NCBI RefSeq assembly: GCF_057098645.1
Contig: NZ_CM169472.1
DNA: 64,000 nucleotides
Strand: one strand, 5' to 3'
Made by a program: the position numbers and the translations under genes. Numbering within the stretch: position 1 is the first letter of the stretch; each line of letters begins with the position of its first letter. Positions 1 to 44,856 of this stretch are shown in pieces. The notes below the pieces were generated by a model. That model worked only from the letters and a program-made list of their open reading frames with translations. It was not told where the DNA came from and searched no databases.

Positions 1-168
1 CTCCAAATCAGCGTGTTAGTCCACTTTGGTGAAAGATGAGATTTATTTGTCGGCTGGCCTTGAGTTTAGCGGGGTATGTCAGTACTATAACGCGTCATTT
101 TTCAGCCGACCTTTAACACGTTCCTTGCCTCCCCGGGATTCGGCTGACCCAGACAGGAGGCTGAATAA

Positions 169-582
<414 letters not shown>

Positions 583-2491: not shown

Positions 2492-2838
2492 TTTATTGTT
2501 GCCTGTTTAATATTTTTACAAATATCGCAGTTGAATGTTCAAAGAAAAAGAATTGATATTAATAAAAATAAGTTTGTTTTCTGAAGTAGTGAAAATAGCG
2601 GATGGTGAAAGATATTAATATCAAAAATCGCTCATTGTGGATATAACGATGCAGCAGGGGAGAAAATGACTTCCACGCCTTACACCGTACATTCTTGTTG
2701 TGCGGTATGTAATTATTCTACGCTGTCGGTATTGGTGTATTCGTTAATCAGCAGGTTAACCAGCCACAAAAAGCCATTGAGAAAATTATTGATTTTACAT
2801 GGAATTATTATATTGCCAATCCTTGTTTTTTAAAAATT

Positions 2839-3057
2839 GTGCATAGTGAAAATCAAAGTAAAGGTGTGCATTATGCAAAATCACAGCGTCTCTTAGAAAT
2901 TACCCATGCGCACTTGCAGTTAATGGAATCCTTATTGGATGAAGGGAAGAAACACAATATTTTTAAGCCAGATATCGACCCATTTCAGGTGAATATTAAT
3001 ATTGCTGCGCTTGGGGGATATTATTTGATCAACCAGCATACGCTTGGCCTGGTTTAT
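2839..3057 (+). pseudogene. ytfA: ytfA 5' segment (TetR-like C-terminal-domain fragment) interrupted by IS200/IS605 element
   Basis: ORF starts with GTG at 2839; reading frame runs into IS left end; joining 2839..3057 to 4802..4909 restores an uninterrupted 108-codon ORF. Confidence 0.6.
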
Positions 3058-3114
3058 CCGGTGCGCCGTAAAACCCCGTCCTTCAGGGCGGGGATATACG
3101 GCGCGGTTTTCCAC

Positions 3115-3527
3115 CTAACCAGGTGTTTGCTGTTGTTCAATGTATTGACGGATGGCGGATATTGGCGCACCTCCGCAGCTACTGGCAAAATAGCCAGGAC
3201 TCCACAAAACGCCTTTGTAGTAATACCTGACTGCAATATCTGGTCGATCTCGTCGCAGTAACCTACCCGATACGCCTTTGAGGCTGTTTACCAGACTGGA
3301 TATCGCCAGTTTGGGAGGATAGTTAATTAACAAACGTGATCTGGTTCGCCATCCATTTCAACCAGTTCAGCTTCAAAATCAGCACATACCTTTGAAAAGT
3401 AAGTGCGTAGTTTTTCTGTCGCGTCATGGTCAAAAATCTGGCGTCGGTATCTGGTGACAAAGACCAGGTGAACATGCATCAGGAAAACACAATGCCTTCC
3501 ACGCCGGATATCGGTTTCTTTTTTCAC
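3115..3527 (-). pseudogene. tnpA: IS200/IS605 Y1 (HuH) transposase TnpA, frameshifted
   Basis: N-terminal frame (3327..3527) has HVHLVFVTRYRR and ends at EPDHV-stop; C-terminal frame (3115..3333) continues LINYPPKLAISS...LWSPGYF...IRQYIEQQ; frames offset by one nucleotide inside the HuH motif. Confidence 0.75.
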
Positions 3528-3549
3528 AGACCAAAATATAATTTGACCC

Positions 3550-4758
3550 GTGAAACGACTACAGGCATTTAAATTCCAGTTAAGACCCGGTGGTCAACAG
3601 GAGCGTGAAATGAGGCGCTTCGCAGGCGCATGTCGTTTCGTTTTCAATCGTGCTCTGGCGCTTCAGAATGAGAATCATGAGGCCGGTAATAAATACATCC
3701 CTTACGGGAAAATGGCTTCCTGGCTGGTTGAGTGGAAAAATGCCACTGAAACGCAATGGCTTAAAGATGCCCCGTCACAGCCATTGCAACAGTCACTGAA
3801 AGACCTTGAGCGGGCTTACAAAAACTTCTTCCGGAAGCGGGCTGCTTTTCCCCGATTCAAAAAGCGGGGACAGAATGATGCATTCCGCTACCCGCAGGGC
3901 GTTAAGCTCGATCAGGAAAACAGCCGTATTTTTCTGCCGAAACTTGGCTGGATGCGCTACCGGAATAGCCGTCAGGTCACGGGTGTTGTGAAAAATGTCA
4001 CTGTCAGCCAGTCCTGCGGTAAGTGGTACATCAGTATTCAGACTGAAAATGAAGTATCAACTCCGGTTCACCCTTCAGCATTAATGGTCGGACTGGATGC
4101 TGGCGTGGCTAAACTCGCCACGCTGTCAGATGGCACAGTCTTTGGGCCTGTAAACAGTTTTCAGAAAAACCAGAAGACGCTGGCGAGACTTCAGCGACAG
4201 TTAAGCCGCAAGGTCAAATTCAGCAACAACTGGCAGAAGCAGAAACGCAAAATACAGCGACTGCATTCCCGTATCGCAAATATCCGCAGGGACTACCTTC
4301 ATAAAGTCACAACGACCGTCAGCAAAAACCACGCAATGATAGTCATTGAGGATTTGAAGGTCAGCAACATGTCAAAGTCAGCAGCGGGTACGGTCAGCCA
4401 GCCGGGGCGCAATGTCCGGGCAAAATCAGGTTTAAACCGTTCGATACTGGATCAGGGCTGGTATGAAATGCGCCGCCAGCTTGAGTACAAGCAGCTCTGG
4501 CGTGGCGGTCAGGTGCTTGCTGTTCCGCCAGCGTACACAAGCCAGCGTTGCGCGTGCTGTGGTCATACAGCGAAAGAAAATCGCCTGTCACAAAGTAAAT
4601 TCAGATGCCAGGCATGTGGATATACAGCGAACGCTGATGTAAATGGCGCTCGTAACATTTTAGCGGCGGGGCACGCCGTTCTTGCCTGTGGAGAGATGGT
4701 GCAGTCAGGCCGCCCGTTGAAGCAGGAACCCACCGAAATGATTCAGGCGACAGCCTGA
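3550..4758 (+). CDS. tnpB: IS200/IS605 accessory protein TnpB (RuvC-like RNA-guided endonuclease)
   Basis: 402-aa ORF (GTG start); RuvC-I GLDAG (D183), RuvC-II IVIEDL (E267), zinc finger CACCGH...CQACG, Ruv[13 protein letters not shown] (D363) all present. Confidence 0.9.
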
Positions 4759-4817
4759 ACGTAGCAGGGATCCACGTCCTTCAGGGCGTGGAGGATGTCA
4801 ACACATCAGTATGGTTT
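4650..4817 (+). ncRNA. predicted TnpB omega-RNA (right-end element RNA): scaffold overlapping tnpB 3' end and RE hairpin, plus about 16-nt guide from the right flank
   Basis: Inference from family architecture: intact tnpB, RE hairpin 4772..4791, IS end at about 4801; guide would be 4802..4817 (cacatcagtatggttt). 5' boundary is a guess. Confidence 0.35.
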
Positions 4818-4909
4818 CACCCCAGGCACTGGAAGCCAGACGTAAGGTCATCAAAGAGACAATCCTTAGCTGGCTTTTGGTTGACCCGTCATCTACCGCG
4901 CACGAATAA
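4802..4909 (+). pseudogene. ytfA: ytfA 3' segment displaced by the IS insertion
   Basis: 35 codons then TAA at 4907..4909, in frame with 2839..3057 once the IS is removed. Confidence 0.45.
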
Positions 4910-5531
4910 AACTGCCATCCGGCTGGCGGGTGAACAGGACCTGTTGATTATTCCCCGTATCAATGGTTAAGCCCGTCACCACGCCGCTGGCGTTCTGGCG
5001 GATTTTCACCATCTGCCCGTTTTGCAAATTACTCAGCGGCTTACCCGCGCCTTCTACCTGCGCCATTGCATAGACATCGGTAGCGGGCAGTCCGTGGTCG
5101 CGGAACAGCTGCGCCATCGTTTTACCGGGTTCGACACGGTAAGAGCGCCATTGATTATCAATTCCGCTATCTGGCTGGAATGGTTGTGTTTGGGTAGTTT
5201 GCGGCTGCTCTTCTGGCTGGCCTTCCTGTATAGGTTCTGGAGCGACCGGAGCCACCTGATCAGGATCATTTTGTGGTGTGACTAATTGCGCCCGCAGCTG
5301 TTCTTCTGTCGGCGGTTGTGATTGTGACTGAATATCTAACTGCGCTTCACGCGTCACCACCGGCGCGTTGGGCGTATCATCAGATGGAAGCAGAAATCCG
5401 ACCACCAATACAATGGCGGCAATAATGATCCCCCGACGATGCATCGGCGGCAGCGGGTCCATGAAGCGAAAATTGTCCGGCGCGTGCCAGACTTTCTCCA
5501 GGGTTGGTTTTAGTTCAAAGCGCCCGGGCAT
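4893..5531 (-). CDS. ytfB: cell-division-associated OapA-domain protein YtfB
   Basis: ORF 4893..5567; start placed at the internal Met giving 212 aa; Pro/Gln-rich linker and C-terminal OapA/LysM-like region. Confidence 0.82.
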
Positions 5532-8905: not shown

Positions 8906-9880
8906 TCAACTTTCTGAGACAGATTCAGTTAAAGGTTTTTCTGGTTTTGCTCTGACCGCGATGACCACGCCAATCACTAACAGCGCGATACCGCTCAGCG
9001 TCATTAGCGGCGGCATTTGCTGGCGGAGTAAAAAGGTGTACAGCAAACCTGCCAGCGTTTCGAAAACAATCAGCGGCCCGAGAATCACTGTCGGTAATCG
9101 CTGGCTGGCGACGTTCCAGCAGAGTGCGCCAACCCATGAGCAAAGCACGGCTATCGCAATCATCAGACTAATAAACACCAGCGGACGGGGGCCAAAGGGT
9201 AGGGAGAAGTCCGGCGTTTGCGTATTCAGCCAGTAACAAGCGACGAGATAGCCGATAAGTGAAACCGGCAGTGTGACCAGCGCCTGCGCTGTTGCCCACA
9301 TCATCGGATGTTTGTCGGGATTTTCCCGCAACCAGCGGGCGTTGCGCAGGGCATACCACGCCCAGCAGACCACGGAAACTAACGCCAGCACGATGCCAGA
9401 GGTATAACGTGCCCAGTCAAAATCGGGGAGTCCGTGGTTTAACTCAGCAATATTCACACACGCCAGGCCGATGCCAATACAAATCAGTGCCGGGGCGAGT
9501 TTTCCCCACGCGAGTTTGCCGTCGCGCTGGCTATAAAGCAGATTGGCAAAGACAGGAATCACCACCGGCAGGGTGCCGATAATCATCGTGGAAACAGGCG
9601 CGCCAGTACGTTGAATGGCACTGGCAAGGCAGAAGTAATAAATGAGGTTGCCCATCATAGTGAGCATCAAGGCGGTAAGCCAGTCCCGACGCGCCAACTG
9701 ACGCAGACGCACGCGTCCCAGCCAGGCAATGGGCAGCGCAATTAACCCTAACGCCAGATAACGCCCCATCGACTGCAACATCGCCGGGTATTCCGGTACG
9801 ATCAACGGCCCGACAAAAATAAGCCCCCACATCAACCCTGCTAACAGGGCGTACAGCACGCCGCTAATCATTACTGGCAT
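8906..9880 (-). CDS. ytfF: EamA/DMT-family inner membrane transporter YtfF
   Basis: Hydrophobic 10-TM-like ORF; true start may be the Met at 9871. Confidence 0.85.
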   Translation of the reverse strand: MPVMISGVLYALLAGLMWGLIFVGPLIVPEYPAMLQSMGRYLALGLIALPIAWLGRVRLRQLARRDWLTALMLTMMGNLIYYFCLASAIQRTGAPVSTMIIGTLPVVIPVFANLLYSQRDGKLAWGKLAPALICIGIGLACVNIAELNHGLPDFDWARYTSGIVLALVSVVCWAWYALRNARWLRENPDKHPMMWATAQALVTLPVSLIGYLVACYWLNTQTPDFSLPFGPRPLVFISLMIAIAVLCSWVGALCWNVASQRLPTVILGPLIVFETLAGLLYTFLLRQQMPPLMTLSGIALLVIGVVIAVRAKPEKPLTESVSES

Positions 9881-9979
9881 CCATTGGTCTGTCAGAAGAA
9901 ACGTTCAGGAAGCAGACATGATTGCTCCCGGCATCCCGTCATTATCAGAGAGGATGCGGGAGGATGCCACTTTAATTAA

Positions 9980-13370: not shown

Positions 13371-13559
13371 CAGGGACATCCTTTTATCATCGGGAATACG
13401 AAAGAAAAGGGAGAATAAACGTCTTACTTATAGAACAGTGAAGAATGCCACAATTTTACGCTTTGAAAATGATGACACTATCACAGTTGGCGCATTCATT
13501 AACGATAGGGTATAAGTAAAACAATAAGTTAACACCGCTCACAGAGACGAGGTGGAGAA

Positions 13560-18003: not shown

Positions 18004-18180
18004 ATCTTATCCGACCTTTCAGGCCAGATCCTCGGAAGGGGAAGTTGATTAATTTGTGTGAAATACACATTGAAAGCCGATTCGAAGAAAGTGAACCGGC
18101 ATTTTCAGTGGCTAGTATAGCGTAAGGTACTGTAAAGCCGCCAGAGGGTTAAAATTCAGGCTGCTGATAAATGCAAAACT

Positions 18181-18285
18181 GCCCGATGCGCTATGCCGAT
18201 CAGGCCTACGCAGTCCTTGCAATATATTGAATTTGGAAGATTTTGTAGGCCTGGCAAGGCGTTTACGCCGCATCCGGCATAAACA
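18181..18285. repeat. REP/BIME elements
   Basis: gcctgatgcgacgc-like and gccgcatccggca motifs between ytfL and msrA. Confidence 0.55.
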
Positions 18286-27713: not shown

Positions 27714-27815
27714 TATGCCTGATGCCGATTCGTAGGCCGGATAAGGCGCTCGCGCCGCATCCGGCGATGGTGCACTGAAGCCTGATGCGACGCTTACCGC
27801 GTCTTATCATGCCTA
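27714..27815. repeat. REP/BIME elements
   Basis: gcctgatgc...taggccggataaggcg...gccgcatccggc motifs between ytfQ and ytfR. Confidence 0.55.
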
Positions 27816-33974: not shown

Positions 33975-34078
33975 AGGCCGGATAAGGCGTTCACGCCGCA
34001 TCCGGCATTTGAGCATAGTGCCTGATGCGACGCTTGATGCGTCTTATCAGGCCTACAGGTGCACCGTATCCGGCAAAC
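33975..34078. repeat. REP/BIME elements
   Basis: taggccggataaggcg / gccgcatccggca / gcctgatgcgacgc motifs between convergent mpl and yjgA. Confidence 0.55.
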
Positions 34079-37569: not shown

Positions 37570-37745
<176 letters not shown>

Positions 37746-44569: not shown

Positions 44570-44662
44570 GTTGCCAGCAGGTATTATATCGCCATAGATG
44601 CTACGAATATTATTGGATTCTCCTTATTATTTGCGGCGCTTTTTTCACTTACCGGAGGTTAT

Positions 44663-44716
44663 ATGGAACCTGATCCCACGCCTCTCCCTCGACGGAGATT
44701 AAAACTTTTCCGGTAA
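44663..44716 (+). CDS. mgtL: mgtA leader peptide MgtL (proline-rich, 17 aa)
   Basis: [20 protein letters not shown] at 44663, within the mgtA 5' leader. Confidence 0.8.
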
Positions 44717-44856
44717 GCCCGTCTTTTCACGGCGTTACCGGATGCGTAAGGCCGTGACGTTTTAACGTCCCTGCTCAGCTTTATTACCTTCAGGTAAGGC
44801 TTCGCCACGCCTGAAGACATTTCTGTACTGTTTCAGACAGTGCGGAGGGACTCCTT

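Follow-up and report, generated by a model that had tools for sequence, protein, structure and literature searches.

Within the window (the whole 64,000-nt stretch of DNA that was analyzed), positions 3058..4801 are occupied by a 1744-bp IS609 element that lies within the ytfA pseudogene. IS609 belongs to the IS605 group (IS200/IS605 family), among those members whose genes are divergent, and the element brings together what that group is recognized by: a Y1/HUH TnpA (here as a pseudogene), hairpins that are subterminal, with terminal inverted repeats absent, motif-directed insertion without duplication, and a tnpB gene. The features of the locus and the evidence by which they were placed are as follows:

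2764..3057, + strand: 5' fragment of the ytfA pseudogene (TetR/AcrR-family), interrupted by the element; RefSeq annotation of O145, where the locus is identical
3053..3057, + strand: target motif TTTAT (core TTAT at 3054-3057), the element being inserted immediately 3' of it
3058..3114, + strand: IS609 left end (LE); empty-site comparison, pattern search and fold
3542..3115, - strand: tnpA pseudogene (Y1/HUH transposase) with a 4-bp deletion; copy alignment, translations, NCBIfam, RefSeq "frameshifted"
3550..4758, + strand: tnpB (insQ-type), 402 aa, GTG start, intact; Pfam, NCBIfam, ISDra2 alignment
4655..4801, + strand: predicted omega-RNA scaffold, overlapping the tnpB 3' end and the right end; 22-homolog alignment, RNAalifold consensus
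4759..4801, + strand: IS609 right end (RE), with the TCAA cleavage tetranucleotide at 4798-4801
4802..4821, + strand: right flank CACATCAGTATGGTTTCACC, predicted guide segment of the omega-RNA; K-12 empty-site sequence
4802..4909, + strand: 3' fragment of the ytfA pseudogene, overlapping ytfB, which ends there on the opposite strand; RefSeq annotation of the O145 locus

The ytfA gene of MG1655 is likewise annotated as a pseudogene.

Boundaries, hairpins and target motif

The initial annotation, made from the sequence alone, had placed an IS200/IS605-family element at 3058-4801, and the boundaries, hairpins and gene content all agree with that call, identifying the element as IS609. Over its whole length it shares 97.7% nucleotide identity with the MG1655 feature annotated as "insertion sequence:IS609" (an isoform-level match, as judged against that feature), it is 100% identical in O145 genomes, where the RefSeq annotation reads alike, and the orthologous intact TnpA bears the RefSeq name "IS609 family transposase". 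When the two flanks (window positions 2700-3057 and 4802-5100) are joined, all 657 bases align without a gap, as a single match, in 3281 genomes, K-12 derivatives among them. The empty site of K-12/MG1655 reads GGTTTAT|CACATCAG in a three-way alignment, by which the ends of the element are exact and, as had been claimed, no target-site duplication is seen; yjfZ, ytfA and ytfB are contiguous in MG1655 with no element between them, in agreement with the initial annotation. One C is assignable to either end from the ytfA empty site alone, and since the MG1655 IS609 and the elements at four other loci begin with CCGGTG (or a 1-nt variant of it) and finish with GTCAA, this ambiguity is settled in favor of 3058..4801.

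The left end holds an imperfect hairpin, CCCCGTCC-TTCA-GGGCGGGG at 3074-3093 (one T.G pair), nested in an outer palindrome in which 3063-3070 pairs with 3097-3104, and the right end holds CCACGTCC-TTCA-GGGCGTGG at 4772-4791, directly followed by AGGATGTCAA, with the TCAA end 10 nt past the hairpin foot; the similarity of homologs breaks off sharply after GGAGGATGTCAA. Across the 64 kb, the hairpin pattern matches nowhere but at the two element ends (0 expected in shuffles), and single-stranded DNA folding gave -18.2 kcal/mol (z = -4.06) for the left end and z = -3.2 for the right one, which confirms the paired hairpins and the TCAA terminus reported initially. Both hairpins are also kept in all 21 of the E. 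coli copies compared, and they show covariation in more distant relatives. Another motif match, at window positions 9786-9970 (GGAGGATGCCAC), was considered as a right end and rejected as a weak chance match. In E. coli, the TTAT tetranucleotide stands directly 5' of the element at each of five independent loci (ytfA, ydcO, yedK, yeaQ and yfeD), and most of the phage-borne relatives show it as well; by analogy with ISDra2 and other IS605 elements, we infer TTTAT/TTAT to be the TAM of the TnpB encoded here.

A disrupted tnpA beside an intact tnpB

The two genes diverge, their start codons being 7 bp apart. Alignment to the MG1655, XH990 and O157:H7 copies places a 4-bp deletion in tnpA between 3333 and 3334, inside the HUH motif, where DHVHLL becomes DHVC*. 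The two halves of the gene match NCBIfam transpos_IS200 separately, at profile positions 2-59 and 61-126, both exceeding the cutoff of 55 bits, and O157:H7 has at its ytfA site an intact ortholog (WP_000604943.1) that scores 145.7 bits with the same profile; copy alignment, translation and split profile matches are all in line with the frameshifted, divergent Y1/HuH transposase described initially. The start at 3542 is ATT here and ATG in other copies, and this change was entertained as a second tnpA knockout and dropped as uncertain, given that a GTG remains in frame at 3527 and that the ATT allele is common.

As the 4-bp HUH deletion destroyed TnpA, the element is not autonomous and does not excise or transpose by itself. 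It might nevertheless be mobile if a TnpA acting in trans excised and re-inserted it, with TnpB homing restoring the donor site, and the intactness of both ends and of the flanking TTAT would suit such a scenario, as would the intact IS609 tnpA found in other lineages, at the ytfA site itself (O157:H7 and O166:H15) and at yeaQ in other E. coli. The O145 chromosomes, however, contain exactly two tnpA-like places, the second belonging to a copy at gltX-yfeD whose tnpB is intact, and both are frameshifted; the yedK, yeaQ and ydcO sites of the closest O145 genome, searched for a sibling copy, were all empty. The closest chromosome offers no sibling IS609 TnpA that could mobilize the element. The IS609 of K-12, moreover, has been reported to be immobile (PMC2891674, PMC5009759) and inert, with no transposition in mutation-accumulation lines (PMC5009759). 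Mobilization in trans is, accordingly, deemed very unlikely.

The 402-aa product of tnpB was claimed initially to be an intact TnpB with D183, E267, D363 and a CxxC...CxxC motif, and this claim stands. Profile searches against TnpB families matched all three Pfam domains, namely HTH_OrfB_IS605 (3.9e-14), OrfB_IS605 (8.6e-34) and Cas12f1-like_TNB (2.7e-24), as well as NCBIfam guided_TnpB at 389 bits (cutoff 100), in accordance with the TnpB domain layout of an N-terminal HTH/WED-REC region, a split RuvC and a zinc-ribbon TNB. A phmmer alignment to the ISDra2 TnpB chain of 8H1J (E 4.8e-55) sets D183/E267/D363 upon D193/E280/D363 of the chain, which, minus a 2-residue offset, give D191/E278/D361, which we take to be the published ISDra2 RuvC triad; the D-E-D residues thus occupy the triad columns, and C334/C337 together with C353/C356 form the CxxC...CxxC zinc finger. 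The identical protein is found on at least 1000 contigs under the name "RNA-guided endonuclease InsQ/TnpB", and an IS609 TnpB has been purified for testing (PMC12781874). A promoter/terminator scan of 2900-4950 returned three promoter-like sites against 2.0 expected, none of them positioned for tnpB, the upstream sequence scoring no better than shuffled sequence.

Downstream, a guide-RNA scaffold covering the tnpB 3' end and the right end is predicted and supported by covariation. Its consensus pairings by RNAalifold, all on the + strand, are:

4663-4668 with 4674-4679: helix
4685-4689 with 4722-4726: helix enclosing an inner stem
4744-4748 with 4753-4757: helix
4771-4779 with 4784-4792: helix
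4655-4660 with 4793-4798: possible long-range pairing

Among 22 homologous 3' ends, 93.5% of the alignment cells are paired, vs. 40-49% when the partner strand is slid, and 17 of the 38 pairs show compensatory changes, values that were reached by none of the 500 shuffles. Rfam, on the other hand, returned no gathering-level family at the locus, its only matches being sub-threshold ones to HgcC, sot0042 and RAGATH-18. The right flank CACATCAGTATGGTTTCACC has a single match in the window, at the right-end junction, where TCAA instead of TTAT comes before it; in the empty ytfA allele it lies directly 3' of TTTAT. Going by what is known of ISDra2 and IS605 TnpB biology, this flank would serve as the omega-RNA guide, and the empty ytfA allele would then be a cleavable target, since the predicted guide sits directly 3' of TTTAT there.

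The conservation of tnpB at several fixed chromosomal loci amid tnpA decay would also be expected of a TnpB recruited by the host for a non-transposon role, e.g., TldR-like RNA-guided repression. Such domestication seems extremely unlikely for a protein that preserves both its RuvC triad and its zinc finger (to our knowledge, domesticated TldR proteins no longer possess RuvC activity), for an element that has kept both of its transposon ends, and for a guide that, coming as it does from the flank, differs at every locus.

Distribution among E. coli and selection on the two genes

The left junction of the ytfA insertion is present in 1744 of the 5426 complete E. coli genomes (~32%), O157:H7 with its intact tnpA included, and the empty ytfA allele in ~60%, which shows the insertion to be an old, polymorphic E. 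coli allele and not the strain-specific event it had been taken for. RefSeq, furthermore, already annotates it as a frameshifted tnpA, an InsQ/TnpB endonuclease and a split TetR-family pseudogene. With about one-third of complete genomes carrying it and the public annotation agreeing, the insertion is an ordinary and already known one, a catalogued element annotated at the same site. The 4-bp tnpA deletion junction is much rarer, being found in 60 of the 5426 genomes, and represents an O145:H28-type allele.

The initial annotation had further proposed retention of TnpB for its endonuclease function rather than the element being an autonomously transposing IS. The second half of that proposal holds, as the HUH deletion renders the element non-autonomous; the retention part does not follow from this copy, as a deletion found in only 60 genomes has left tnpB little time to decay and an intact tnpB needs no special explanation. 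Selection was looked at across 21 E. coli IS609 copies, from variant counts taken without reference to a tree. In this sample, tnpB shows purifying selection (omega ~0.32, p = 4e-7 vs. neutrality), whereas tnpA looks neutral (omega ~1.4; Fisher p = 0.0015 for the difference), and tnpB is open in 20 of the 21 copies, having a single disruptive lesion vs. at least 5 independent ones for tnpA (p = 0.006 with gene length taken into account). Taken by themselves, the 10 tnpA-disrupted copies give an unchanged tnpB omega of 0.32.

Against this stands one pair, the yfeD-site copies of O145 and MS1170, which share an old tnpA lesion and whose tnpB omega of 0.61 is, for this single pair, indistinguishable from neutral, so the constraint on tnpB may relax after the loss of TnpA. 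Other shared tnpA lesions were tried as markers of "post-death" clades for dN/dS and given up, this one clean pair being usable: IS609 copies exchange sequence across loci (the yfeD-site copy of SC455 has a ydcO-type nonsense codon, whereas the ydcO-site copy of IPCEC31 is without it), which blurs any before/after-lesion comparison. Taken together, the family-level evidence for TnpB retention is mixed.

The copy in the window could, then, be a decaying relic, inert since the death of tnpA, with tnpB open merely through lack of time and TnpB and its RNA idle in the lineage. The minority status of the 4-bp deletion, the short time for decay implied by a TnpB that departs from that of XH990 in just 1 amino acid, with 2 silent changes besides, the non-significant omega of the old-lesion pair, the inertness of IS609 in K-12 mutation-accumulation lines (PMC5009759) and the cases of tnpB loss (SCU-176, through an 11-bp deletion, and another hit, H80, where an IS1 is annotated inside the match) all fit such a history. 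The constraint on tnpB being just as strong in the tnpA-disrupted copies, its much lower density of disruptive lesions as compared with tnpA, and the 3' scaffold pairing maintained by compensatory changes in relatives argue the other way, and we regard an idle relic as somewhat unlikely.

Proposed reading and comparison with known systems

The reading that we favor, and consider quite probable, is that of a TnpA-dead IS609 copy at ytfA whose TnpB and omega-RNA are likely still functional and whose tnpB is intact owing to a recent or rare tnpA lesion and to purifying selection across the E. coli IS609 population, acting together. IS609 sits directly behind TTTAT in the ytfA pseudogene, and in the O145:H28-type allele the loss of 4 bp from the HUH motif has destroyed TnpA; with the ends, tnpB and the 3' scaffold intact, TnpB could presumably still be produced and bind an omega-RNA whose scaffold comes from about 4655-4801 and whose guide is read from the right flank (CACATCAG...). 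In line with the homing model for TnpB (bioRxiv 10.1101/2023.03.14.532601), this complex would cleave DNA in which TTAT or TTTAT is followed by the flank sequence, i.e., the empty ytfA allele, a target that, without TnpA-driven excision, would arise only by recombination or from incoming DNA. TnpB and omega-RNA of TnpA-less, site-fixed copies may even be selected for policing their locus, with incoming or recombinant DNA that replaces the insertion with the empty ytfA allele being cut; we hold this to be unlikely, but, if true, the insertion would act as a chromosomal allele that protects or drives itself with no need for transposition.

The discovery value of the locus is small, as K-12's own copy is in the same state and the insertion is already annotated. 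What is of more use is the population picture, in which IS609 occupies a handful of fixed, polymorphic E. coli sites where tnpA repeatedly decays while tnpB and the 3' scaffold are conserved, making the endogenous E. coli InsQ/TnpB a convenient natural system for the role of TnpB once the transposase is gone.

As for known systems, the predicted scaffold resembles the HgcC and sotRNA families (Rfam RF00062, RF02656), RNAs that overlap tnpB 3' ends (PMC4615843), in its placement at the tnpB 3' end and in its terminal hairpin followed by GGAGGAnGUCA; with scores of 23.5 against a gathering threshold of 50 and 17.5 against 88, however, it is not an Rfam member of either. The TnpB of ISDra2 (8H1J, 8BF8, 8EXA) aligns over its full length (E about 5e-55), with the RuvC D/E/D residues and both CxxC pairs in register, the TnpB of the ytfA copy differing by a 15-residue insertion after the catalytic E267. 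ISDra2 likewise draws its guide RNA from the tnpB 3' end/right end and the guide from the flank, an arrangement predicted for the ytfA copy, whereas its TAM is TTGAT, as opposed to the predicted TTAT/TTTAT.

Like the ytfA copy, IS608 of Helicobacter pylori, the mechanistic model for the IS200/IS605 family, has a Y1/HUH TnpA and, in place of inverted repeats, imperfect hairpins that are subterminal; it inserts 3' of a tetranucleotide without duplication, and its right end finishes in TCAA 10 nt past the hairpin foot. Its target is TTAC instead of TTAT and its tnpA and tnpB are co-directional, not divergent with starts 7 bp apart; "peel and paste" transposition is expected to be nil for the ytfA copy, abolished by the HUH deletion.

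A further close counterpart is the single IS609 of MG1655 (ydcL-ydcO; yncK pseudogene and insQ, b1432), which lies at another locus, differs by 12 amino acids in TnpB and by a G-to-A change in the left hairpin, and has the same CCGGTG...GTCAA ends, both hairpins, a TTAT target and divergent tnpA/tnpB, with tnpA dead and the 402-aa tnpB intact. Its tnpA was lost independently, through a nonsense codon (GR*LRR) and a lost stop codon instead of a 4-bp HUH deletion, and the pairing of a dead tnpA with an intact tnpB, which had initially been thought telling, is nothing special to the ytfA copy: K-12 has arrived at the same state by a different mutation.

Identity, boundaries and distribution of the element

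The element is IS609: it is 97.7% identical to the annotated "insertion sequence:IS609" of MG1655 (1503161-1504908; yncK pseudogene plus insQ), and O145:H28 genomes, which match window 3058..4801 at 100% identity, carry at the same place in RefSeq ytfA as a TetR/AcrR-family pseudogene in two pieces, together with an "RNA-guided endonuclease InsQ/TnpB family protein" and a "tnpA: IS200/IS605 family transposase" marked as frameshifted. E. coli chromosomal genes (rpsF-priB-rpsR-rplI, yjfZ, ytfA, ytfB, fklB, cycA) make up its surroundings.

Features of the element and its insertion site (window coordinates)
2764-3057 and 4802-4909, ytfA pseudogene fragments
3074-3093, left hairpin (shared-pattern search and single-stranded DNA fold)
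3542..3115, minus strand, opposite tnpB, tnpA pseudogene
3550..4758, tnpB, 402 aa, full Pfam architecture plus NCBIfam guided_TnpB
4772-4791, right hairpin (shared-pattern search and single-stranded DNA fold)

A 657-base query joining the left flank up to 3057 to the right flank from 4802 matched 657/657 ungapped in K-12 derivatives and in one place in 3281 genomes, so the empty site that the initial annotation proposed seeking in E. coli does exist. In MG1655, yjfZ-ytfA-ytfB are contiguous and free of the element, as that annotation stated. Because a three-way alignment gives this site as GGTTTAT/CACATCAG, a target duplication is indeed absent, with one C assignable to either element end. The IS609 of MG1655 and the copies at yedK, yeaQ and yfeD start with CCGGTG or a 1-nt variant and end in GTCAA, which fixes the element at 3058..4801, the very limits first proposed. 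Directly 5' of the left end stands TTAT, at all five E. coli loci (5/5) and in most phage-borne relatives; this is the insertion target of IS609 and, on the ISDra2 model, its predicted TAM. The left flank of one IMG/VR contig (L025) is TTAC, and in two more distant relatives (L056, L057) the flanks end in TGA.

Both subterminal hairpins described initially are recovered, their shared pattern matching at these two places alone in 64 kb and nowhere in shuffles, with single-stranded DNA folding z of -4.1 (left) and -3.2 (right). The right one is followed by AGGATGTCAA, which places the TCAA element end 10 nt past the hairpin foot; in a subgroup of relatives, four IMG/VR contigs (L025, L059, L062, L063), the hairpin at this end is of another form, CCCCCTCC...GGTGGGGG, with a long loop inserted. 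A longer, outer palindrome (3063-3104, GCGCCGTA ... TACGGCGC) encloses the left hairpin just past the tnpA stop codon on the minus strand, and might also serve as a terminator.

The supposition of a strain-specific insertion is unsupported: the ytfA::IS609 left junction is present in 1744 of 5426 complete E. coli genomes, and the element is an already known, annotated and widespread insertion. Since ytfA counts as a pseudogene, lacking its N-terminus, even in the annotation of the uninterrupted K-12 allele (L080:2195-2596), no working gene was inactivated in any lineage examined. ORF 2839..3261 was rejected as a gene, being a ytfA-IS read-through artefact.

Loss of tnpA and evidence for selection on tnpB

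The reported tnpA frameshift proves to be a 4-bp deletion between 3333 and 3334 (versus the MG1655, XH990 and O157:H7 copies), which changes the HUH motif from DHVHLL to DHVC*; the two halves of the gene still align to the IS200 transposase profile, over positions 2-59 and 61-126. Because the deletion junction occurs in just 60 genomes (the O145:H28 lineage and scattered others; twice in five genomes), the dead-tnpA state of the window copy is a minority allele, recent or rare. In O157:H7, O166:H15 and JNE23-001 the tnpA at the ytfA site is annotated without a flag, as open (with an in-frame 6-bp deletion in JNE23-001), and further copies there have lost the stop codon or carry other frameshifts. 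Stop loss (TAA to CAA, window 3115-3117; equivalent position in L003, L006, L007, L009, L011-L013 and L015) is a common IS609 allele, whose ORF crosses the left-end hairpin into the flank, with ~60 extra codons at ytfA, and which RefSeq labels "missing C-terminus".

The start codons of the two genes (ATG/ATT at 3542; GTG at 3550) lie 7 bp apart on opposite strands, so that the promoter of each must lie inside the other; in a scan of window 2900-4950 no sigma-70 promoter was recognisable for tnpB. Its product scores 389 bits against guided_TnpB (cutoff 100) and aligns over its full length with structures of ISDra2 TnpB, D183, E267 and D363 occupying the columns of the RuvC triad and the two CxxC pairs being kept, which, with the Pfam profiles, bears out the identity and catalytic residues first assigned.

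In a sample of 21 IS609 copies covering five loci, 20 have an open tnpB, and the variants of this gene comprise 40 silent and 45 replacement changes (omega ~0.32; p = 4e-7 against neutrality), versus 7 and 34 in tnpA (omega ~1.4; Fisher's test between genes, p = 0.0015); independent disruptive lesions number at least five in tnpA and one in tnpB, a gene 2.8 times the length of tnpA (p = 0.006). These data support purifying selection on tnpB but not tnpA across the E. coli IS609 population. In the cleanest comparison following tnpA death, two yfeD-site copies sharing a 1-bp tnpA deletion and 2.2% divergent, tnpB omega is 0.61, not different from neutral. Sequence exchange among copies of different loci appears to occur, which limits such tests. 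Instead of the yfeD-type deletion, the SC455 yfeD-site copy (L089) has a nonsense codon of the ydcO type, GR*LRR (compared with ydcO-site L003, L087 and L090, and with L088), and the IPCEC31 ydcO-site copy is without that codon. The proposal that TnpB is retained for its nuclease activity is plausible, with omega and lesion counts behind it at family level, but the tnpA lesion of the window copy, being so recent or rare, says nothing either way for that copy.

Candidate guide RNA and other RNA families

Among 22 distinct 3' ends, drawn from 61 related IMG/VR loci, similarity runs up to GGAGGATGTCAA and stops abruptly. A consensus structure with one hand-added stem (38 pairs) is 93.5% paired in these ends, versus 40-49% with partners slid, and 17/38 pairs show compensatory changes, values reached by 0/500 shuffles. 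At the same place Rfam gives HgcC, sot0042 and RAGATH-18, all sub-threshold; the published description of HgcC and the sotRNAs (PMC4615843) places these RNAs at the 3' ends of tnpB genes. This sequence evidence supports a putative omega-RNA scaffold at ~4655-4801, with the guide from 4802 onward; for the right hairpin, single-stranded DNA recognition by TnpA could explain the covariation equally well. Under the omega-RNA reading, the predicted target, TTTAT+CACATCAG..., would be the empty ytfA allele, and as TCAA precedes that sequence in the window genome in place of TTAT, the element's own locus would escape cutting.

Other gathering-level Rfam matches in the window
105-189, RpsF leader
13371-13493, ES239
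18065-18122, minus strand, STnc450
18202-18243, minus strand, ES036
27735-27813, 33976-34053, 37668-37738, 62710-62785 and 62806-62881, naRNA4 (RF02564), five matches
44648-44763, Mg riboswitch
63715-63909, Ysr276

Judging by their Rfam names, all except naRNA4 seem to be unremarkable enterobacterial RNAs; the naRNA4 matches presumably mark REP-type repeats, whose proposed mobiliser is RAYT, a distant TnpA relative.

Mobility and relation to known systems

O145 chromosomes have exactly two tnpA-like places. The second IS609 of NZ_CP028379.1, the closest chromosome (3080698-3082344; L086:8698-10344; 1747 bp), lies between gltX and yfeD, its tnpA frameshifted by a 1-bp deletion common to strain MS1170 and its 402-aa tnpB intact with all catalytic residues; the yedK, yeaQ and ydcO sites are empty, and the chromosome, the replicon covered, encodes no intact IS609 TnpA. 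K-12's single IS609 has been reported immobile owing to the yncK stop codon (PMC2891674), with zero events in mutation-accumulation lines (PMC5009759).

Relative to ISDra2 TnpB, the window protein has a 15-residue insertion at ~278-292 (window ~4381-4425), just after catalytic E267. The right end shares the known geometry of IS608, with TCAA set 10 nt beyond the foot of the hairpin, and the predicted guide and target layout would fit the published homing model (bioRxiv 10.1101/2023.03.14.532601).
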